64,000 nt of DNA. Source: Candidatus Hadarchaeales archaeon (GTDB lineage: Archaea; Hadarchaeota; Hadarchaeia; Hadarchaeales; WYZ-LMO6). The notes beneath the pieces are model-generated. The model searched no databases and was not told where the DNA came from. It saw nothing but the letters and a program-made list of their open reading frames with translations. The DNA is taken from positions 32,001-96,000 of the forward strand of contig JAWCKR010000003.1 in the NCBI GenBank assembly GCA_038851755.1, given 5' to 3'. Both the position numbers and the translations under genes were made by a program. This document shows positions 3 to 10,606 of the stretch, in pieces. Positions within the stretch are counted from its first letter, which is position 1; every line of letters begins with the position of its first letter.

Positions 3-284
3 GGTGAGGACCCCCTCTTCCACATGCTCGCGGGGGGCCTTTTCCTGGGGGCCTTCTTCATGGCCACCGACTACGTCACCACCCCCCTCACGGGCAAGGG
101 CAGGGTGATCTTTGGTCTCGGGGCGGGTCTCCTGGTGGTGGTGATAAGGATGTACGGGGGGATGCCGGAGGGGGTCACCTACTCCATCCTGATCATGAAC
201 GCCTTCACCCCCCTCATAGATAGGTACACCAGACCCAGGGTGTACGGGACGGTGAGGAAGAAATGGTGGGAAAGAAAGAAGTGA
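3..284 (+). CDS. rnfD: Rnf complex subunit D, C-terminal part (5' end outside window)
   Basis: Open frame from window start; [16 protein letters not shown] and [19 protein letters not shown] are RnfD/NqrB C-terminal motifs; first gene of rnfDGEAB run. Confidence 0.93.
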
Positions 285-781
285 AGCCGGTGGCGGTGCT
301 GGTGATCACCTGCGTGGTCTGGGGAGCCCTCCTGGGCTTCATCCACGGCGCCACGGAGGAAAAGATAGAGGAAGCGGAGAGGACCGAGCTCTACCGCACT
401 CTCTCAGAAATTTTTCCCGGCGCTCAGTTCAGTGAGGAGGATGGCCACTACGCTTGCTTGGAGAACGGTGGGGTGGTGGGGTATGCCACGGTGGTGGAGG
501 AGAGGGGATTCGGCGGGAAGATGAAGGTGGTGGTAGGGATCTCTAAGGAGGGAACGGTGGTGGGGGTCAGGGTGGTCTCCCACAGCGAGACCCCTGGTCT
601 GGGATCCAAGATAACAGAGGAGGAGTTCTTGGCCCAGTTCGGGGGGAAGAGACTGGAGGAGATACTCCTTAAGAAGGATGGGGGAGAGATAGAAGGGGTC
701 ACGGGGGCCACCATAAGCTCCCGGGCGGTGGTGAGGGCCGTGAGGTCGGGTCTGGAGAACCTGCTGGGGTGGATGGGGTGA
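263..781 (+). CDS. rnfG: Rnf complex subunit G (FMN-binding)
   Basis: N-terminal TM helix, [12 protein letters not shown] and flavinylation motif VTGATISS. Confidence 0.93.
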
Positions 782-1371
782 AGGTTCAGGAGTTCACGAA
801 GGGAATCCTGAGGAAGAACCCGGTGCTGGGACTCATCCTGGGACTGTGTCCTGTCCTCGCCATCACCACGAAGGTGGAGAACGCGCTGGGTATGTCCGTT
901 GCCTTCACCTTCGTGATTGTCCTCTCCAATCTCCTCATTTCTCTCCTCAAAAGGTTCATCCCCAGGGACGTGAGGATTCCCACCTTCATCGTTATCATAG
1001 CAAGCTTTGTGACCATCGTGGAGATGCTGATCCACGGCTACTCCCCTCCCCTCTACGAGCAGCTGGGGATCTTCCTCCCCCTCATCACGGTGAACTGCAT
1101 CGTGCTCGGCAGGGCAGAGGCCTTCGCCTCCAAGCGCCCGGTCTCGGAGACCCTGCTGGACACCCTGGGGATGAGCGTGGGGTTCTCCCTCTCCATCATC
1201 GTCATCTCCTCCCTGAGGGAGCTTTTCGGGACAGGCAAGATCGTGGTCTTCGGGCACCAGCTGGTTCCAGGCCTCCTCTCCTCCCCGGCCACAGGCATGA
1301 TCCTGCCGCCTGGGGCCTTCCTGGTGATGGGCATCTTGCTCGCCGTGATGAAGAAGGCGAGGGTGGTGTGA
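769..1371 (+). CDS. rnfE: Rnf complex subunit E (start may be GTG at 778)
   Basis: NPVL..LGLCP.LA, RIP..I..IA, LITVNCIVLGRAE, LPPGAF motifs. Confidence 0.95.
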   Translation: MDGVKVQEFTKGILRKNPVLGLILGLCPVLAITTKVENALGMSVAFTFVIVLSNLLISLLKRFIPRDVRIPTFIVIIASFVTIVEMLIHGYSPPLYEQLGIFLPLITVNCIVLGRAEAFASKRPVSETLLDTLGMSVGFSLSIIVISSLRELFGTGKIVVFGHQLVPGLLSSPATGMILPPGAFLVMGILLAVMKKARVV

Positions 1372-1372
1372 G

Positions 1373-1954
1373 ATGGAGAACCTTCTCGGAATAGTGATAG
1401 CGGCCATCTTCATCAACAACATCGTCCTGACGAAGTTCCTTGGCCTCTGTTCCTTCTTCGGCATCTCCACCAGAATAAAGACCTCGCTCATGATGGGCAT
1501 GGCCGTCACCTTCGTGGCCACCTGTTCCTCCCTCATCACCTGGCTCATCCACCGGTACTTCCTCTTGCCCTTCCACATAGAGTACATGCGGATAGTGGCT
1601 TTCATCCTGGTGATAGCCTCCTTCGTCCAGCTGGTAGAGATCACCATCAGGAAGCTCTCTCCCTCTCTCTACAGGGCCTTCGGGATCTACCTCCCCCTCA
1701 TCACCGTTAACTGCGCCATCTTGGGAGTGACCCTGATCAACGTGGATGTGGAAAGGTATTCCTTTCCGGCTGCCGTGGTCAACGGCTTTGCCACGGGCCT
1801 GGGTTACACCCTGGCCATCCTCATGATGTCCGGGATGAGGGAGAGGCTGGAGATCTCAGAAGCCCCTCCCTCCTTCCGTGGCCTCCCCCTGGCCTTCATC
1901 ACGGCGGCCCTCTTGGCCCTGGCCTTCCAGGGTTTCAGCGGGATGGTGGAGTAG
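1373..1954 (+). CDS. rnfA: Rnf complex subunit A
   Basis: NNIVLTKFLGLC, GIYLPLITVNCAILG, RERL...P..FRG.P motifs. Confidence 0.95.
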   Translation: MENLLGIVIAAIFINNIVLTKFLGLCSFFGISTRIKTSLMMGMAVTFVATCSSLITWLIHRYFLLPFHIEYMRIVAFILVIASFVQLVEITIRKLSPSLYRAFGIYLPLITVNCAILGVTLINVDVERYSFPAAVVNGFATGLGYTLAILMMSGMRERLEISEAPPSFRGLPLAFITAALLALAFQGFSGMVE

Positions 1955-2761
1955 ATGATAGAGGAGATGATGGTCCTGGGGGTGACGGGGGCTGCCTTCG
2001 CCATCATGTTGGTGGTGGCGGCCAGGAAGATGGCCGTTCAGGTGGACGAGAGAGTCGAGAGGATCCGGGAGAAGCTCCCTGGTGCTTCCTGCGGGGCCTG
2101 CGGGTTCAAGGGCGGGTGCGATGCGCTGGCGGAGGAGGTGGTGAAGGACCCCTCCCTCCTGAGCAAGTGCAGGCTGGCGGGACCGGAGGAGAAGAAGGAG
2201 ATAGGGAAGATCCTGGGAGTGGAGGTGAAGGAAGAGGAGGAGAAGAGGCTGCCGCGCGTGAGGTGCACGGGCCAGTCCAAGGTCCTCTTCGAAGCCTCCG
2301 GGGAGAGGACCTGCTCGGCCCTCTCCGACCTCGCGGGGGGGCCGCTTGCCTGCCCCTACGGGTGCCTGGGGGTGGGAGACTGCGTGAGGGCATGCCCCTT
2401 CGGGGCCCTGAGGATGGAGAACGGACTCCCGGCGGTGGACGAGCGGAGGTGCACGGGGTGCGGGCTCTGCGAGCAGACCTGCCCCAGGGGATTGATCAAG
2501 CTCCTCCCCGTGAGCACCAAGGTCCTCCTCCTCTGCAACTCCCCCGCCCCGGGGAAGGAGGTGAACGCTTCCTGCGCCAGCGGCTGCATCAAGTGCAGGA
2601 TCTGCGAGAAGGCCTGTCCTGTTCAGGCCATAAAGCTCGACCCCCTGCCCATCATCGATCAGACCCTTTGCAACGCCTGCGGGACCTGTGTGGAGAAGTG
2701 CCCGCGCAAGGTGCTGAAGCTGGGCGTGCCTGTAGCTGCCCCTGCTCCCCCCTCAGGTTAG
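1955..2761 (+). CDS. rnfB: Rnf complex subunit B (polyferredoxin)
   Basis: N-terminal anchor, LPGASCGACG..GC motif, multiple CxxCxxCxxxCP clusters. Confidence 0.93.
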   Translation: MIEEMMVLGVTGAAFAIMLVVAARKMAVQVDERVERIREKLPGASCGACGFKGGCDALAEEVVKDPSLLSKCRLAGPEEKKEIGKILGVEVKEEEEKRLPRVRCTGQSKVLFEASGERTCSALSDLAGGPLACPYGCLGVGDCVRACPFGALRMENGLPAVDERRCTGCGLCEQTCPRGLIKLLPVSTKVLLLCNSPAPGKEVNASCASGCIKCRICEKACPVQAIKLDPLPIIDQTLCNACGTCVEKCPRKVLKLGVPVAAPAPPSG

Positions 2762-4879
2762 TTTCTCTATCCGGGGAAGGTCCCAGGAGTCCGAGTACAG
2801 GATCCTCCCGTCCGAGCCCACCAGCATGGCCTTCACGGTCCTACCCGAGGAGGAGAGGTTATCGGCCAGTTCCTTCCCCTTCTCCGGTCCCAGCACGAAG
2901 AGGGTAGTGCTCAGGGCGTCTGCGTCCGTGCAGTTACTCGCTATCACCGTGACGCTCATGCATTCTCCCGCCGGTTTCCCCGTCCTGGGGTCGAGGATGT
3001 GGTGGACCCTCTGGGAGCCCAGGAGGAAGAACCTCCTGTAGTCCCCCGAGGTGGCGATGGAGAAGTTCTCCAGCTCCAGCACCAGCATCACCTCCTCCTT
3101 CCTGGGGTGCTGTACCCCTATCGTCCAGACCTTCCCGAACCCCCTTATCTCCCCCCCCACGTTCACCAACCCAGCCCCCACCCCGGCTTCCCTCAGGACT
3201 TGACAGGCCCTGTCCACCGCGTACCCCTTCGCTATTCCTCCCAGGGTCACTCCCATCCCCTCCTGTGAGAACCTGGCCCTCCCGTTCTCCACCTCCAGCT
3301 TCTCCCACCCCACCCTCGCGAGAACCTCCGAGAGTCTCTCGCCGGAAGGGAGCTTTCCCTTCTCCTTCACCTCCTTCATCCAAAGGTCCACCAGGGGCTT
3401 CACCGTGATGTCGAAAGCCCCTCCAGAGAGCTCGGAGTAATCCAGGGAGGAGCGCAGGAGGAAGAGGGTTTCCTCCGAGAGTTCCACCCAGGAGGTTCCG
3501 CCGTGGTTCAGGAGGTAGATCTCAGCCCTCTTATCCTCGGCGGACATGAGACCCTCCACCCTCTTGATTTCCCTGTAGGCTGCTCTCACAGCTTCCTTCG
3601 CCTTAGCCGTGTTCTCGTCCACCACCTGGATCTCCACGAACGTGTCCATGGCCAGACCCTCCCCCACCACCCTGTCCCCTCTGAGGTGGATGGTCAGGGG
3701 CTGCACGGTGAGGGAGCTCAGGAGGAGGGCGGTGAGGGCCGCCATCCCCAGCGAGGCCCCGGCCACCTTCCGGCTCTCCTCCCCCAGCCTGGGAAGGAAG
3801 AAGAGGGAGGAGGAAAGCACGGCCTGGGAGAGGAGGAAGCCGGAGGCCATCCCCACCACCCCGAACTCTTTCCCCAGCACCACGATCCCCGCGAGCCCCA
3901 CGGCGAGGGAGGAAAAGTAGGAAAGGAGAACGGAGGAGGTCTCCTGCCTGGAGTAGAGGCGGGAGAGCTCGATCTGGGCCACCACGGCCAGGGGGAGGGA
4001 GAGGGCCATCACGCGCAGGACCTTCGCCCCCTCCCCGAAGCCGGGGAAAAGGGAGGGGAGGAACAGGGAGAGGAGGAGGGCGGAGAGGAGGAGGGGGAAG
4101 GAACAGAAGAGGGCCTTCTTCTCCGTTCTCCCCACCCTTCTCCCCGCGGCTCTCTCCGGGAGGAGGTAGAAGAGGAGGATTTGGGGGAAGGAGGCGAAGA
4201 GGAGGAAGAACCTGTTCCCGAACTGGTACATGCCCAGCTCCTCCCTCCCGAAGAGGGGCCCTATGACCACCTTGTCCAGCAGGTTCATGGAGGCCGCCCC
4301 CAGGTCTGCCATCCAGAGGCCCAGGAGGAAGGTGGGGGGAGGAAGGGAGAGTTCCCTTCCCCGGGTCCTGAGGAGGGGGAGGGAGAAGGGAAGGTAGGAG
4401 AGGGAGAGCCCCAGCACGAGCCACCTCACCTCCTCCAGCCTGAGGTAGAGGAGGAAGGGGAGGAGGAGGGTGAGGCTCCTCGCCCCCACCCAGAGCAGGA
4501 GATACCGGCGGTAGGAGCGCCTGGAGAGCTCGAAGTGGAAGCTCAGGGAGAAGAGGGAGAGGGAGAGGAGGAGGAGACCCGTCCAGGGATCCAGTAGGAG
4601 AGAGAGGAGGGTCCCGGCGACTACGCTGGGAAGGAGACCCAGCAGGAGGCACCCCTTCAGTATCCCTTCACCTTTCCTTGGATAGAGGGCCAGGGAGGCC
4701 TTCCCCGCCCCGAGAAGGGAGACCCCGGAGAGGAGCATGGCCAGCGACACCTTCCACGCCACCTCCCCGTAGGCGAAGGGGTGGAGGAGGAGGGCCAGGA
4801 GGACCCAGAAGAGGAAGCCTGAGAGGGTGGCGAAGAGCTGCGCCACCGCCACGTGGAGCACGCCTCCCTTTGCCTCCAT
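2753..4879 (-). CDS. Fusion of Wzx/MOP-family flippase-like membrane domain and ApbE FAD:protein FMN transferase
   Basis: Likely start ATG at 4879 (MEAKGG). N-terminal multi-TM region with flippase-like LLL.P..YG and DKVVIGPLFGREELGMYQ motifs. C-terminal ApbE motifs DITVKPLVDLW, LGGIAKGYAVD, ATSGDYRR, HILDPRTG, ADALST. Single uninterrupted frame. Confidence 0.85.
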   Translation of the reverse strand: MEAKGGVLHVAVAQLFATLSGFLFWVLLALLLHPFAYGEVAWKVSLAMLLSGVSLLGAGKASLALYPRKGEGILKGCLLLGLLPSVVAGTLLSLLLDPWTGLLLLSLSLFSLSFHFELSRRSYRRYLLLWVGARSLTLLLPFLLYLRLEEVRWLVLGLSLSYLPFSLPLLRTRGRELSLPPPTFLLGLWMADLGAASMNLLDKVVIGPLFGREELGMYQFGNRFFLLFASFPQILLFYLLPERAAGRRVGRTEKKALFCSFPLLLSALLLSLFLPSLFPGFGEGAKVLRVMALSLPLAVVAQIELSRLYSRQETSSVLLSYFSSLAVGLAGIVVLGKEFGVVGMASGFLLSQAVLSSSLFFLPRLGEESRKVAGASLGMAALTALLLSSLTVQPLTIHLRGDRVVGEGLAMDTFVEIQVVDENTAKAKEAVRAAYREIKRVEGLMSAEDKRAEIYLLNHGGTSWVELSEETLFLLRSSLDYSELSGGAFDITVKPLVDLWMKEVKEKGKLPSGERLSEVLARVGWEKLEVENGRARFSQEGMGVTLGGIAKGYAVDRACQVLREAGVGAGLVNVGGEIRGFGKVWTIGVQHPRKEEVMLVLELENFSIATSGDYRRFFLLGSQRVHHILDPRTGKPAGECMSVTVIASNCTDADALSTTLFVLGPEKGKELADNLSSSGRTVKAMLVGSDGRILYSDSWDLPRIEKLT

Positions 4880-4933
4880 CCCCAGTCCTTTCCCGCTGGA
4901 AGCTATATACCGTCCCAGGTAGGAGGGCTTGAA

Positions 4934-5722
4934 ATGCTGGTTCCCTCCTCTCACGGGGAGGTGAGGGTGGTGAAGTGCGGTGCGGAACTCTCGGGCAGGG
5001 TTCCCTACTGGACGCACTTCTACCTCTACAGGGGCCTGGTGATAGACACCGGTTGCCCGCACACGGCGGGTGAGGTGGGGGAGTTCGTGGGGGGAAGGGG
5101 GAGAGTGGTCCTGCTCACCCACCATCACGAGGATCACGTGGGTGGGGCGGTGGCCCTCCAGGGCAGGCTCAGGATCTTTGCCCCCACCAGCTCACTCCCC
5201 CTGCTCGAGCATCCGCCCGAGGTCCCCGATTACCGGAAGCTGGTGTGGGGACAGCCCCAGCCCCTGAGGGCGGAGCCCCTCCCTTCTCCCCTGCGTTTCG
5301 GCGGGCTGGAGGTGGAGGTCCTCGAGACCCCCGGGCACACCTTCGATCACGTTTCCTTTCTGGTGGACCGGAAGCTCTTCGCCGGCGACCTCGTGCTGGC
5401 GCCAGGGCAGATGGTGTGCATGAGGCAGGAGGAGCTCAGGGAGACGATGGAGTCCCTGGAGAGGGTCCTGGGACTGGACTTCGACCAGGCCTACACCGGA
5501 GTGGGGGTCTTCTCCAGGGCTGAGGTGGAGGCCTACCTGGAGTACCTGGAGGGGCTGAGGGAGAGGGTGGAGGGTCTCCACCGGAAGGGGAAGAGCCCGG
5601 AGGAGATCGTGGAGGAGATCTTTCCCCATCCCCCCGAAAAGGTTGAGCTGATGGAGGTAGTGAGCGACAGGGAGTGGTCGAGGGAGAACATGGTCCGATC
5701 CCTCCTCGGCCTCCCGCGCTAG
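4934..5722 (+). CDS. MBL-fold metallo-hydrolase
   Basis: IDTG, THHHEDHVG, TPGHT.DH, FAGD motifs; AGGAGG upstream of ATG 4934. Confidence 0.85.
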   Translation: MLVPSSHGEVRVVKCGAELSGRVPYWTHFYLYRGLVIDTGCPHTAGEVGEFVGGRGRVVLLTHHHEDHVGGAVALQGRLRIFAPTSSLPLLEHPPEVPDYRKLVWGQPQPLRAEPLPSPLRFGGLEVEVLETPGHTFDHVSFLVDRKLFAGDLVLAPGQMVCMRQEELRETMESLERVLGLDFDQAYTGVGVFSRAEVEAYLEYLEGLRERVEGLHRKGKSPEEIVEEIFPHPPEKVELMEVVSDREWSRENMVRSLLGLPR

Positions 5723-6348: not shown

Positions 6349-7116
6349 ATGATTTTATGTGAGGGGCTCCAACGCCTCCCGATGAGGAGGGGTGAGGCCT
6401 TCGAGCTGGTGCTGGTCGTCCTTGCCCTGGTCAGCGTGGCCCTCCTCCTGTACGAGCTGGACCATCCCGAGACGGCTTGGTTCACCTCCTCCTGCGACTT
6501 CGTCATAGCCCTCCTCTTCCTGGGGGAGTACCTCTCCTCCACCTTCAGAGCGGAGCGCAGGCTGCGCTACGCCCTCACCCACTGGTACGACCTGCTGGCC
6601 TCCATCCCCATCCCCTTTTCCGCCGTCAGGATGTTCAGGACGATAAGGGTGGTGAGGCTGGTGAGGGTGATCCGGACCCTGAGGGTCCTGAGGCTCAGCA
6701 GGGCCTTCACCTTCCTCTCGGAGAGCAGACTGGGTACGGTGGTGGTGGCCCTCCTCATGGTCCTCCTCTTCGGTGCCACCTCCTTCCACATCCTCGAATA
6801 TGGACAGAACCCCTCCCTCCACGGGTCCCTGGACGCCCTCTACTGGGCCGCGGCCACCCTCTCCACGGTCGGCTACGGGGATATCGTGGCGGTGACCTCG
6901 GCCGGGAAGGTGCTCACCGTGGTCCTCATGCTCTTCGGGATAGGGGTGTATGCCACGCTGGCGGGTCTGCTGGCCGGTTACCTGGTCAAGGGGCGGGAGG
7001 GAGAGGAGGACCTGGAAGAAAGGATAGCCAGGATGGAGGCCGAGATCCGGGAGATCTCAGGAGTCCTTCGGTCCGGGTGGAAGGAGGATTCAGGGGGGGA
7101 ATCGAGGAACCCTTGA
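6349..7116 (+). CDS. Voltage-gated (KvAP-like) potassium channel (start may be ATG 6382)
   Basis: Selectivity filter TVGYGD, Arg-rich S4 helix, 6-TM pattern, C-terminal coiled-coil-like tail. Confidence 0.9.
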   Translation: MILCEGLQRLPMRRGEAFELVLVVLALVSVALLLYELDHPETAWFTSSCDFVIALLFLGEYLSSTFRAERRLRYALTHWYDLLASIPIPFSAVRMFRTIRVVRLVRVIRTLRVLRLSRAFTFLSESRLGTVVVALLMVLLFGATSFHILEYGQNPSLHGSLDALYWAAATLSTVGYGDIVAVTSAGKVLTVVLMLFGIGVYATLAGLLAGYLVKGREGEEDLEERIARMEAEIREISGVLRSGWKEDSGGESRNP

Positions 7117-7758
7117 GAGGTCCAGCACCTCCCCTCCCTTTCTCCTGAGGAGTTCAGCCGGCAGGTCCCACACCGCCCTTGCCCTCTCCACGATCACCCT
7201 GTCGCTTGAGGCCGAGATCTCGCAGGAGCTCACTTCCCTGTCCACTCCTCGCACCGCCCGGCACACCGCCTCCACCCCGCGCCTCTCCAGGATCTCCCCG
7301 GTCTTCCTGGCGAGTTCCCCGCTCCCGCTGGCTGGGCTGTCGAAGAAGACCCTCACCTCCCTGGGTTCCGCCTTCTCCAGGAGGAGGGCCACCTCCTCCA
7401 GGACCTCCCAGGTGTGTTCGCCCACACGGTACTTCCCGAAGACCGTCCTCAGGTCCCTCAGGAGCCCGTCGTCGCACCTTATCACGGGGTCCCCCCTCAG
7501 GAGGCTCTCGCAGGTGATGAGGACGTTGTATCCGTCCACTCCCACCGTCCTTCTCCTGACCTCCCTCCAGGAGACCAGCTTCTTCCCATGTTCCTCGGCC
7601 TCCCCCCTGGAGAAGACGCAGCGGGTGAGGAGGTGGCGCTCACGTGAGGGCAGGCAGTAGTGGTCTGAGACCACCCTCACCGCCGTTTCCCTGGGGTATC
7701 CGCGGTCGAGGAGGTACCTCAGGTCCCTGATGGCCTCCTCCGTCCTCTCACTCCACAT
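7090..7758 (-). CDS. DUF434 domain protein with PIN-like domain
   Basis: DLRYLLDRGYP N-terminus, VDGYNVLIT, DDGLLRD, SSD..I motifs. Confidence 0.8.
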   Translation of the reverse strand: MWSERTEEAIRDLRYLLDRGYPRETAVRVVSDHYCLPSRERHLLTRCVFSRGEAEEHGKKLVSWREVRRRTVGVDGYNVLITCESLLRGDPVIRCDDGLLRDLRTVFGKYRVGEHTWEVLEEVALLLEKAEPREVRVFFDSPASGSGELARKTGEILERRGVEAVCRAVRGVDREVSSCEISASSDRVIVERARAVWDLPAELLRRKGGEVLDLSRVPRFPP

Positions 7759-10606
7759 AGATGGCGGGCCTGAGGGGAAGGGCCCCCTTGCTCCTCCCCT
7801 TCGGGTCGTAGACCCCTGGATCGTCCTCCCTGAAGACCCTCACCTCCACACCCAGCTGCTTCTCCAGGTAGGAGGAGTTCTCCCTCAGGACCTCGTACTC
7901 GTCCACTCCCCTCGAGAGGAGGGCGAGCCTCTCCTCGGGCAGATCCCTGCTCCCCTCCAGGACCTTCGCCAGGAAGGGCGCCAGCTCGGCTTTGGGCTTC
8001 CCTATCGTGCCCTCCAGGTGCCTGAGGAGTTCGCTCCTGTCCTTTCTCCCGAGCGAGAGCTGCCTGAGGATCTCCCTGTGGGCCTCCCTCTTCCAGGCCG
8101 AGGGGGTGTAGAGGCAGACGAGCCTGGGCTTTACCTTCACCACCTTCACGATCTTCCCCACGTCCTCGAGCACGGAGGAGAGGAACTCCTCCTTGAACTC
8201 GGCCTCCGGGTCCTTCAGTCCCTCCTCCACCTCCGGCCAGGGGGCGAGGGAGACGAAGCCCTTCTCCCCCATCCTCTTCCAGAGCTCCTCGCAAAGGTGG
8301 GGGATGAAGGGGGCCAGGAGACGGACCCAGACGTGAAGCACCTTCTTCACCACCTCTCCCCTCGCCCCTTCCCCCCTCCAGGAGAGGTACTTCCTCACGT
8401 CCTGCTGGAGGAAGAAGAAGGAGTGCTGCAGGGCCCTCCTCGTCTCGAACCTCTCCATGGCCTGCGTGGTCTCCTCCACCCTCCTCTGGAGCCTGCTCAG
8501 CAGCCACCTCTCCGGGAGTTCGAGGGGGAGGGAGGGTGAGGGCAGGGAGAGGATCTCCTCGCAGAGGGAGTAGAACCTCTCCAGCCCCTTCACCATGGCC
8601 TCCGCCTCGACCTTCCTCCAGTTGAAGTCCTGCCAGGGCTCAGAGGAGGACATGAGGTAGAGCCTCACGGCGTCCGCCCCGTACTCCTGCACGGCCTTGT
8701 TCACCTCCACCAGGTTTCCCTTGGAGGAGGACATCTTCTGGCCCTCCAGCACCGCTATCCCGAAGCAGACGATTCCCCTGGGCAGGCGGTGGGGGAAGAG
8801 GAGCGCGTGGTGGAAGACGAAGAAGGTGAGGTGGTTGGGGATGAGTTCGCTTGCCGACATGCGGTAGTCCAGGGGGTACCAGTACTCGAACTCCTCCCTC
8901 AGGCGCTGCAGCGTGGGAAGGGGGATGCCGGAGGAGCGGGAGAGGACCTCGGGGTCTCCCTTTCCGTAGAACACGAAGTCGAAGACCTCGTCGTTCAGCT
9001 TCTCGGGATCGAGCTGCTTGAGGAGGTGGGAGAGGGGGTAGTAGGCCATGTAGATGGTGGAGTCGCTCAGGGACTCGATGATCCAGCCCGGGTCCCAGGG
9101 GGCCTTCGTGCCCATGCCCACCTTCCTGGTGCAGGGCCACTCGCGGAGCCACTCTATGGTGTGCTCGTACTGGGCCCTCGTCTCCGGGGGGACGAGTTCC
9201 ATCTTCCCCAGCACCTCCCTGGCCTTTTCCTTCCAGCCCTCGTCGGCGTAGTTCAAGAACCACTGGTCCTCCACCACCTTCACCACCACGGGTGAACCGC
9301 ACCTGCACCTCACGGGCTTGAGGGAGAACTCGTACATGATGGCCGCCTCCCCCGTGGAGAGGAGGTCCTGCTTCACCAGGTTCTTGGCCTCCGACACCGG
9401 CTTTCCACCGTAGACGGGTATCCAGCTCCTCATCCTACCCTTCGCGAACTCCGTCCTGTACACCCTGGAGGTGGCCTCCTCCAGCTTGGGGTCCAGCTGA
9501 CCCTTTATTCCAAGCCTCTCCACCTCCTCCACCGCCGGGAACTCCCCGTACCCCTCCACCTCGATCAGGGAGAGGGGCCGGAGCCTCTCCGCCTCCACCC
9601 CGAGGCGCTTCAGCTCCTCGGGTCTCCCCTTGAGCTCCTCCAGTGCCACATGGTCGTAGGGGGCGTGCGAGGGGACGGAGCCCACCACCCCCGTGGCGTT
9701 GTCCGGGTCCACGAAGTCGGCCGGAAGGATGGGCACCTTCTTCCTCGTCAGCGGGACCTCCACCTCCGAGCCGAACTTCACCCTGAAGGGTCTGACCTCC
9801 CCCACCCTGTAGCCCTGCTCCGCCAGCTTGGCCACGGCCTGCTCGCTCACCACCCACCTCTCCCCGTCCACCTCCACCTCCACGTAGTTCGCCTTCGGGT
9901 TGAGCCAGAGGTTGGTGACCCCGAAGACGGTCTCGGGCCTGAGCGTGGCGGCGGGCAGGACCTTCCCGTCCTGCCGGTACTTCAGGAGGGTGAACTCCAG
10001 CATCTCCGCCTCCTCACCCTCCAGCAGGTCGTGGTCCGTGACGGGGTTGCCGTCCCTGGGGCACCACCTCACGGGGTGCTTCCCCTTCACGATGAGCCCC
10101 GCCTCCATGATCTTGTGGTACTGCCAGGTCACGAACCTGCTGTAGGGGGGGTCCACGGTGGTGAAGTCCCTCCTCCAGTCTATGGAGAGACCCAGCCACT
10201 TCATACCCTTCTTGTAGCTGAGGTCGCTGATCTCGGCGAAGTAGGTCCCGAAGTACTTGGGGTCCTCCATCCTGGACAGGAGTTCCTGCGGGACGCCGTA
10301 GCGCCTGGTGAGGAGCTCCACGTAGGCCGGCTCCCTCCTCGCCACCCTCTTGGAGGCCCCCACGATGGGCGTGCCCGTGAAGTGGAAGGCCATGGGGAAG
10401 AGGACGTTGTACCCCCTCATGCGCTTGTACCTGGCGATCACGTCGGGGATGGTGTAGGTGCGGGCATGGCCTATGTGCATGGGGCCGGAAACGTACGGGT
10501 AGGCCACGGTGAGGTAGAACTTGGGCCTTCCATCGGGCTCGGCCTGGAAGATCCCCGCCTTCTCCCACTCCTCCTGCCACTTCCTCTCTATACCCTTGAG
10601 GTCCAT
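7748..10606 (-). CDS. leuS: Leucine--tRNA ligase (archaeal type)
   Basis: AYPY..G.MHIGH, ATLRPET editing domain, IESLSDSTIYMAYY, KMSSSKGN. Confidence 0.97.
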   Translation of the reverse strand: MDLKGIERKWQEEWEKAGIFQAEPDGRPKFYLTVAYPYVSGPMHIGHARTYTIPDVIARYKRMRGYNVLFPMAFHFTGTPIVGASKRVARREPAYVELLTRRYGVPQELLSRMEDPKYFGTYFAEISDLSYKKGMKWLGLSIDWRRDFTTVDPPYSRFVTWQYHKIMEAGLIVKGKHPVRWCPRDGNPVTDHDLLEGEEAEMLEFTLLKYRQDGKVLPAATLRPETVFGVTNLWLNPKANYVEVEVDGERWVVSEQAVAKLAEQGYRVGEVRPFRVKFGSEVEVPLTRKKVPILPADFVDPDNATGVVGSVPSHAPYDHVALEELKGRPEELKRLGVEAERLRPLSLIEVEGYGEFPAVEEVERLGIKGQLDPKLEEATSRVYRTEFAKGRMRSWIPVYGGKPVSEAKNLVKQDLLSTGEAAIMYEFSLKPVRCRCGSPVVVKVVEDQWFLNYADEGWKEKAREVLGKMELVPPETRAQYEHTIEWLREWPCTRKVGMGTKAPWDPGWIIESLSDSTIYMAYYPLSHLLKQLDPEKLNDEVFDFVFYGKGDPEVLSRSSGIPLPTLQRLREEFEYWYPLDYRMSASELIPNHLTFFVFHHALLFPHRLPRGIVCFGIAVLEGQKMSSSKGNLVEVNKAVQEYGADAVRLYLMSSSEPWQDFNWRKVEAEAMVKGLERFYSLCEEILSLPSPSLPLELPERWLLSRLQRRVEETTQAMERFETRRALQHSFFFLQQDVRKYLSWRGEGARGEVVKKVLHVWVRLLAPFIPHLCEELWKRMGEKGFVSLAPWPEVEEGLKDPEAEFKEEFLSSVLEDVGKIVKVVKVKPRLVCLYTPSAWKREAHREILRQLSLGRKDRSELLRHLEGTIGKPKAELAPFLAKVLEGSRDLPEERLALLSRGVDEYEVLRENSSYLEKQLGVEVRVFREDDPGVYDPKGRSKGALPLRPAIYVE

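Follow-up and report, generated by a model that had tools for sequence, protein, structure and literature searches.

What would a gene do that joins a flippase-like membrane domain to a complete flavin transferase and meets an rnf operon tail to tail? The question is raised by a 64,000-nucleotide stretch of DNA from a Candidatus Hadarchaeales archaeon (GenBank assembly GCA_038851755.1, contig JAWCKR010000003.1, positions 32,001 to 96,000), the whole of which is referred to below as the window. Its gene at 2753..4879 on the minus strand encodes a protein of 708 amino acids (aa) in which a MOP/Wzx-type domain, a thirteenth transmembrane (TM) helix, TM13, and an ApbE domain follow one another, as determined from the list of open reading frames (ORFs), the translation, the homologues and AlphaFold models. 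A preliminary description made from the sequence had proposed the joining of a flippase-like domain to ApbE and its linkage to rnf, and both were borne out by Pfam, AlphaFold, Foldseek and the ORF coordinates. The gene product is predicted to be an Rnf-maturing flavin transferase held outside the membrane, a reading that is well supported. For the membrane domain, a putative role as exporter of flavin adenine dinucleotide (FAD) is the best-supported reading, and we regard its chances as about even.

In the mechanism that we propose, TM13 would hold the C-terminal ApbE domain on the outer face of the membrane, where ApbE would use FAD as the source of the flavin mononucleotide (FMN) that it attaches to the TGAT threonine of RnfG, and probably to RnfD too. 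The N-terminal 12-TM domain, a presumed descendant of short Wzx-type glycan flippases, would have been re-tuned to export cytoplasmic FAD, which resembles lipid-pyrophosphate-linked glycans in bearing a pyrophosphate. FAD would be released at the outer mouth of the membrane domain, beside the tethered ApbE domain, and its supply and use would be coupled within one polypeptide. Taken as a whole, this explanation, in which an outer-face ApbE domain matures Rnf and is coupled to putative FAD export by the membrane domain, could in our judgement go either way.

Architecture and topology of the fusion protein

The fusion gene is a single open frame, as the preliminary description had stated, with an ATG start at 4879 (minus strand; ORF translation) and a stop codon at 2753-2755 on the same strand. 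The frame remains open further upstream to a GTG at 5137, from which a protein of 794 aa would be made; the ATG at 4879 was chosen as the start since 11 full-length homologues have N-termini that match it. Because full-length relatives with 42-86% identity retain both halves, we take the ORF to be real and not a product of chance. Close homologues of the fusion protein carry the source name Candidatus Hadarchaeales, and the NCBI label for fusion proteins is simply 'FAD:protein FMN transferase'.

The ApbE (FAD:protein FMN transferase) domain occupies residues 411-675 (2855..3649, minus strand), as delimited by PF02424 and by alignment with solved structures. The PF02424 match to these residues had an expectation value (E) of 3.7e-84 and a score of 282.8 bits against a cut-off of 25.6, and it extended over profile positions 1-258 of 266. 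Alignments with T. maritima TM1553 (1VRM; E 6e-49) and with E. coli ApbE (4XGW; E 2e-35) spanned 268-274 of the domain's 312 residues, and this near-full-length agreement with solved ApbEs, together with the Pfam match, confirmed the complete C-terminal ApbE domain of the preliminary description. The blocks GGIAKGYA, TSGDY, HHILDPRTG and DADALST are retained in a form identical or near-identical to those of solved ApbEs. We take these blocks, the third of them generalized as HHI.DP.TG, to bind FAD and Mg.

Residues 1-395 contain 13 hydrophobic helices, according to hydropathy and two AlphaFold models, the first 12 of which would form a MOP-fold transporter core (residues 1-364; 3788..4879, minus strand). 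A HMMER search of each half separately, as the preliminary description had proposed, gave a divided result. While the ApbE half scored far above its cut-off, the membrane half alone matched only PF13440 (Polysacc_synt_3) in Pfam at E 0.025 and 14.3 bits, below the cut-off of 23; none of the NCBIfam models matched the membrane half, and MatE (PF01554) had no match in the fusion protein. The family profile, searched against PDB sequences, returned ApbE chains only and zero MOP proteins, so the fold was shown by structure search instead. The AlphaFold model of residues 1-400, with a predicted local distance difference test score (pLDDT) of 94.1 and a predicted template-modelling score (pTM) of 0.92, has two six-helix lobes and a 12-TM fold like that of WzxE, MurJ and MATE proteins. 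The best Foldseek match of the membrane-half model was the lipid III flippase WzxE (9g9p_A; E 3.8e-8, template-modelling scores 0.75/0.73, root-mean-square deviation 4.1), followed by MurJ and MATE transporters, including drug and citrate MATE proteins. In total, 58 PDB structures matched at E <= 0.001, and among the best 46 of the 58 all belonged to the MOP superfamily (WzxE, MurJ, MATE).

An exhaustive HMMER search gave 364 relatives of the membrane half at E <= 1e-3, including 238 at E <= 1e-10. Among 100 relatives scanned, 57 matched PF01943 and 40 matched PF13440 (E <= 1e-3). Based on these family-level Pfam matches and on the AlphaFold/Foldseek match to WzxE, we assigned the modelled membrane half to the MOP superfamily, as a domain of the Wzx/PST kind and not of the MATE kind, which bears out the Wzx/MOP-like N-terminal domain that had been noticed in the sequence.

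TM13 (residues 367-390; 3710..3781, minus strand), recognized by hydropathy and in both AlphaFold models, is predicted to cross the membrane from inside to outside. The loop before it, PRLGEESRK, is basic, and under a model with the N-terminus inside, lysine and arginine together numbered 14-21 in the predicted inner loops versus 3-10 in the outer loops in 12 of 12 aligned relatives. A 12-helix core followed by the crossing of TM13 therefore places ApbE outside. The preliminary description had asked whether ApbE might be cytoplasmic; the 13 TM helices and the positive-inside bias of all 12 relatives instead lead us to predict an extracytoplasmic ApbE domain, on the same side as the flavin domain of RnfG. 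The fusion protein has no signal peptide, and ApbE is tethered behind the 13-TM domain.

AlphaFold modelling of the full-length protein (pLDDT 90.7, pTM 0.85) hints at a fixed packing of the ApbE domain on the transporter half, as a pTM of 0.85 is high for a two-domain chain. The same value is compatible with any fixed packing of the two halves, including that of a membrane domain that transports nothing and serves as a large anchor or docking platform for ApbE, perhaps against the membrane subunits of Rnf, with FAD arriving by another route. A lipid anchor suffices for bacterial ApbEs, truncated forms of which are active (PMC12052999). For anchoring, however, one helix, TM13, would suffice, and a membrane domain devoid of transport seems to us unlikely in view of this and of the distribution and conservation described below.

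Linkage to rnf and distribution of the fusion

Genes, genomes and proteins outside the window are identified here by our working labels for loci (L), genomes (G) and proteins (P). The rnf genes begin just upstream of the window with rnfC and the remainder of rnfD (RnfC, L060:6036-7346; RnfD, L060:7253-8284). Inside the window they continue on the plus strand with the 3' end of rnfD (3..284), rnfG (263..781; FMN_bind PF04205 and TIGR01947), rnfE (769..1371; PF02508, E 1.8e-64), rnfA (1373..1954; PF02508, E 1e-57) and rnfB (1955..2761; Fer4 and FeS domains and NCBIfam rnfB models). The stops of rnfB and of the fusion gene share 9 nucleotides (nt) tail to tail (2753..2761; ORF coordinates and sequence), an overlap that the preliminary description had already pointed out, as it had the TGAT flavinylation motif of RnfG. 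This motif was confirmed at residues 147-150 (window 701-712), within GVTGATISS at residues 145-153, and rnfG is accordingly the gene of the predicted ApbE client. RnfD contains STATPL. RnfG is the sole FMN_bind match in the genome.

In the source genome (1.25 Mb, 93% complete), the fusion is the only ApbE match, and its membrane half has no match there but itself. A search of this 93%-complete genome with PF01943 returned nothing, and no other Wzx-like gene was found in it. The EetB model (PF07456) had no match in the same 93%-complete genome, and the best MatE match there reached 15.5 bits, below the cut-off, and was located elsewhere than the fusion.

We then examined 66 Hadarchaeota genomes, which are related to one another, so that the counts that follow are not independent. 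A true ApbE was present in 17 of the 66, and in all 17 it was the fused form (two of them cut by contig ends). Rnf-Nqr subunits were present in 18, namely the 17 fusion genomes and G057, whereas none of the 48 rnf-less genomes had a true ApbE or the fusion. The fusion is patchy within genera of the phylum (e.g. 2/6, 2/4 and 1/7 genomes). It lies at most 1.3 kb from rnf in 14 of the 17 genomes and 6.7 kb from it in G059, and in G008 and G062 the interval is interrupted by contig breaks. Given a sole ApbE and a sole FMN_bind protein, RnfG, in the source genome, and the occurrence of the fusion in 17 of 18 rnf genomes versus 0 of 48 without rnf, the fusion probably serves Rnf. So tight a tracking of rnf would also suit a membrane domain that does nothing but anchor ApbE.

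None of the weak 'ApbE' matches in rnf-less Hadarchaeota (ORFs of ~255 aa, E 1e-4 to 1e-6) was counted as ApbE; except for that of G022 they fell below the cut-off, and the G022 match attains it only by the addition of adjacent matches. ORFs weakly matching the middle part of the ApbE profile were seen in G005, G007, G013-G016, G019, G021-G026, G030, G034, G035 and G056. As to the adjoining rnf genes, RnfB is perhaps much shorter in some lineages, only its first ~87 residues being matched between rnfA and the fusion at L098:7451-7708, and the gap from rnfA to the fusion is ~300 nt in G003 and G053.

The fusion also extends beyond this phylum. When the ApbE half was used to look for longer proteins, 332 matches were obtained at E <= 1e-10. 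We tested 120 proteins (104 newly listed and 16 fused ones from earlier searches, most of which were also listed), and at least 83 protein clusters, 80 of them full length, carried the membrane domain; the other 37 were FMN_bind-ApbE and other fusions. The source names of the fusion proteins included Hadarchaeales, Hadarchaeota, Dehalococcoidia, Acetothermia, Chloroflexi and Atribacteraceae. In a sample of 401 Chloroflexota genomes, which includes the unpublished G293 and G104, the fusion was found in none, and among 401 sampled genomes of one Chloroflexota class it was found in two (G653 and G750), both times cut by contig ends. G750 has its copy divided between two contig ends, with rnf on a different contig. 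The Chloroflexota samples thus weakly support the bacterial source names. The preliminary description had spoken of an archaeal system; the archaeal members stand, but with bacterial source names and two genomes of a Chloroflexota class that scope was too narrow.

We found 27 metagenome loci with the membrane domain. Of the 19 that reach beyond the domain, all 19 run straight into ApbE, 18 of them as a single open frame; split forms were not seen. Hence, the search for the same fusion and rnf linkage elsewhere that had been proposed beforehand showed that the architecture is not unique to this assembly: it recurs in 17 of the 66 Hadarchaeota genomes and in at least 83 protein clusters, and 18 of 19 metagenome loci have it in one frame. 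The remaining one of the 19, L092:1211-3109, is a fusion copy with two in-frame stops, which may be a pseudogene or reflect a sequencing error.

Among the 14 metagenome loci whose downstream flank measures at least 2 kb, 10 have rnf adjoining the fusion, and the loci show three rnf gene orders, in which the fusion is convergent with rnfB, upstream of rnfC (L114) or before rnfG (L116). At L105, a 796-aa fusion is convergent with a gene (L105:10420-11310, minus strand) for a 296-aa protein with one TM helix and two FMN_bind-like repeats, each with VTGAT, which is in all likelihood a non-Rnf client of the fusion. The L105 contig also encodes aRF1. At L103, L108 and L113, the order is an AMP-binding enzyme, the fusion, PsiE and Mrp/Mbh-like antiporter subunits (L103:5833-16724, L108:2130-8243 and L113:116-7068). 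No glycosyltransferase lies beside the fused genes among those examined, their neighbours being rnf, an FMN_bind client or Mrp-like genes. The four fusions away from rnf (L103, L105, L108 and L113) argue against a membrane domain that docks ApbE specifically on Rnf.

Origin and putative role of the membrane domain

Standalone relatives of the membrane domain are 375-397 aa long and mostly come from Nitrosopumilales (35 loci). At four annotated Nitrosopumilales loci, the standalone flippase lies amid glycosyltransferases, sugar epimerases and DegT aminotransferases. Directly behind it, at L029, L047 and L036, comes a membrane protein of ~520 aa, the copy of which at L036 matches the PMT (GT-C) model, and at the fourth locus, L030, a PMT-like gene is located upstream of the flippase instead. 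At L029, the flippase and the ~520-aa membrane protein are fused into one protein of 932 aa. The coordinates of these pairs are L029:7001-9799 (a Nitrosotalea record), L047:6983-9765 and L036:7001-9711, and P0035 (922 aa) and P0040 (911 aa) look like the same flippase-GT-C fusion. In Hadarchaeota, a standalone copy was found in one genome, G039, which is without rnf and without ApbE. This copy precedes GT2, GT4 and two DegT genes and is the nearest standalone sister of the fused domain, with 37% identity. The preliminary description had set a grouping with glycan flippases against its own proposal, and that part was indeed observed, as the domain is of Wzx/PST type and its sisters lie in glycosyltransferase clusters.

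A maximum-likelihood tree was made from 101 membrane domains by a quick search, many of the fused rows being of unusual amino-acid composition. In this tree, the 16 fused rows formed one clade with a Shimodaira-Hasegawa-like approximate likelihood ratio test (SH-aLRT) support of 89. This clade was sister to G039 and P0018 (SH-aLRT 96) and then to P0023 (99). Because the fused rows form one clade, the fusion appears to have arisen once, from a lineage of short Wzx-like glycan flippases.

Residues of the family core (W25, G38, G57, D202, K203, Y218, P232, Y238, F278 and G343) are kept in 78-80 of the 80 fused proteins. In the alignment of fused and standalone proteins, two further positions form signatures of the fused clade. 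Position 223 in TM8 (codon 4211..4213, minus strand) is arginine in 80 of 80 full-length fused proteins; of the 85 standalone relatives, 83 have glutamine, the three nearest sisters among them. Position 33 at the outer end of TM1 (codon 4781..4783, minus strand) is histidine in 79 of 80 fused proteins; standalone relatives vary here, the three sisters having E, K and V. In addition, F237 is found in 78 of 80 fused proteins. The cavity at the centre of WzxE is formed by TM1-2 and TM7-8, and arginine pairs have been proposed to bind pyrophosphate in it (PMC11706664); by analogy, R223 would face the transport cavity. R223, H33 and F237, along with the non-glycan gene context, may be regarded as signs of a substrate change in the fused clade.

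Several lines of evidence converge on putative FAD export by the membrane domain. An outer-face ApbE needs FAD, and none of the known exporter families was found in the genome. From the conserved core residues, selection seems to have kept the membrane domain a transporter. Its fusion to ApbE holds in every lineage seen, with different clients, and the fused clade has lost the glycan context and gained the fixed arginine R223. That MOP proteins can export FAD is known from Bfe (PMC3551548). Moreover, the sister flippases are followed by, or joined to, an outer-face enzyme that would use their cargo, and the same design logic supports a coupling of FAD export and use in the fusion. For a membrane domain that served as an anchor, on the other hand, neither the near-invariance of transporter-core residues in 80 fused proteins at 35-86% identity nor a genome in which no known FAD exporter family was found would be expected.

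If the membrane domain were still a flippase for lipid-linked glycans, its fusion to ApbE would join unrelated envelope functions or let ApbE borrow an anchor. Such a role would fit the Wzx/PST-type fold and sequence, the glycan clusters around the sisters, the status of the fusion as the only Wzx-like gene found in the genome and the presence of AglB there. Within the phylum, however, 51 of 66 genomes have AglB, among them 35 of the 48 without rnf, which indicates that N-glycosylation is independent of the fusion, and the fusion itself follows rnf (17 of 18 genomes versus 0 of 48 rnf-less ones). A separate Wzx-like ORF of ~515 aa accompanies the fusion in four genomes (G003, G008, G046 and G059). 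With no glycosyltransferase adjoining any fused gene examined and the glutamine-to-arginine change at 223 fixed in 80 of 80 fused proteins, we consider a retained glycan-flippase function quite improbable.

Another solute linked to the reaction might be moved, such as riboflavin or FMN outwards, or released AMP or flavin back in. The wide substrate range of MOP transporters, reflected in drug and citrate MATE proteins among the Foldseek matches, would allow for this, and periplasmic FAD hydrolysis is known for some ApbE/Ftp proteins (PMC4767422). The FMN donor of ApbE is nevertheless FAD (PMC12052999, PMC8238504), so FAD must get out, and no feature of the sequence points to another solute; we consider transport of one very improbable.

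The proposal of an Rnf-maturing ApbE coupled to putative FAD export also has observations weighing against it. We know of no Wzx/PST-type protein that carries a soluble nucleotide. The membrane domain is closest to flippases of lipid-linked glycans and not to MATE proteins, with its nearest standalone relatives in glycan clusters, and another Wzx-like gene was not found in the source genome, which leaves room for a glycan role. A short branch (0.19) of moderate support (SH-aLRT 89) leads to the fused clade. In the subclade of L103, L108 and L113, neither rnf nor an FMN_bind client is in view. In G653, where the fused gene is cut by a contig end, no Rnf-Nqr match was found. Finally, G057 (85% complete) has rnfCDGEAB, and ApbE was not found in it. 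A contig break as the cause was checked in G057, and the 550 nt 3' of its rnfB hold no fusion gene. In the same genome, a 46-aa stretch at L062:5463-5600 (G057:C14), within an 86-aa frame, shares 48% identity with the fusion's N-terminus and may be a remnant.

On the other side of the fusion gene from rnfB, a divergent gene of the metallo-beta-lactamase fold is located at 4853-5722 (plus strand), the longest frame of which would overlap the start of the fusion by 27 nt. Since its Pfam match starts at residue 61, its true start probably lies further downstream. A gene with DUF434 and DUF5616 at 7090-7758 (minus strand) has an 11-nt overlap with the start of the frame at 7748-10606 (minus strand), which encodes a class I aminoacyl-tRNA synthetase with a leucyl-type editing domain immediately upstream on the same strand.

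Comparison with known systems

In the articles cited here, the only dedicated routes of FAD export are those of Bfe in Shewanella and of EetB/FmnA in Listeria and other Firmicutes (PMC3551548, PMC9973259). The Hadarchaeales fusion may represent a third, independent kind and the first in archaea, in which a Wzx-type flippase lineage was converted to a putative FAD exporter and welded to ApbE, FAD would pass directly from the transport cavity to the flavin transferase, and the unit travels with rnf or other flavinylated systems and crossed between Archaea and Bacteria; we rate this broader proposal as slightly less than evenly balanced. The preliminary description had known of no account of such an architecture, and our literature search found no description of a transporter-ApbE fusion either, within the accessible text of the articles, although the supplementary genome tables of PMC8238504 and PMC9973259 might list such genes. 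In the accessible portion of a 2025 ApbE review (PMC12052999), the words 'fusion', 'flippase' and 'export' do not occur, and 'fused' is used only for a trypanosomatid enzyme.

ApbE surveys based on signal peptides probably miss fused forms. A conserved ApbE-transporter fusion, present in every ApbE-bearing Hadarchaeota genome examined, serves as a 'Rosetta stone' clue that hints at one more FAD route. If the proposal is true, it would fill a missing step in the Rnf maturation of subsurface archaea and would mean that the scaffold of a glycan flippase can be adapted to a soluble nucleotide.

The C-terminal 300 aa of the fusion resemble ApbE/Ftp/FmnB proteins (1VRM, 4XGW) in the complete ApbE domain, the rnf linkage and the client with TGAT. 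The ApbEs known so far, which have ~330-350 aa, are lipoproteins or else secreted or soluble (PMC12052999), and the fusion differs from them in its 13-TM tether and the lack of a signal peptide. Other ApbE fusions exist, such as the FMN_bind-ApbE proteins with anammox and Planctomycetota source names and the trypanosomatid ApbE-fumarate reductase (PMC12052999), but in these the partner is the client and not a transporter.

As a transporter, the membrane half is like WzxE/Wzx/PST proteins (PF01943, PF13440; 9g9p) in its modelled 12-TM two-lobe fold, in the Polysacc_synt matches of its family and in having sisters in glycan clusters. Compared with them, it is shorter (~365 aa for 12 TM helices) and has the extra TM13, the fused ApbE, and R223 and H33. 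Bfe (SO_0702) of Shewanella oneidensis is likewise a member of the MOP superfamily and exports FAD over the cytoplasmic membrane for use outside (PMC3551548), so that this precedent, named in the preliminary description as a MATE-family FAD exporter, was confirmed; it differs in belonging to the MATE family (PF01554) and in being encoded by a free-standing gene not fused to ApbE. EetB/FmnA/EcfA/EcfA' of Listeria also supply FAD to an extracytosolic ApbE (FmnB), eetB colocalizes with apbE, and subunit fusions occur (PMC9973259). This ECF exporter differs in its unrelated fold and in being driven by ATP, and EetB (PF07456) was not found in the source genome, as said. Closest in design are the short Wzx-like flippases of Nitrosopumilales, which belong to the same family (23-30% identity; shared motifs DK, G..LG.YQ and P....Y) and in which a transporter is again combined with an outer-face enzyme, as in the 932-aa protein of L029. 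Their partner is a glycosyltransferase, their context one of sugar-nucleotide and glycosyltransferase genes and their residue at 223 glutamine, in contrast to the ApbE partner, the rnf or other non-glycan context and the arginine of the Hadarchaeales fusion.

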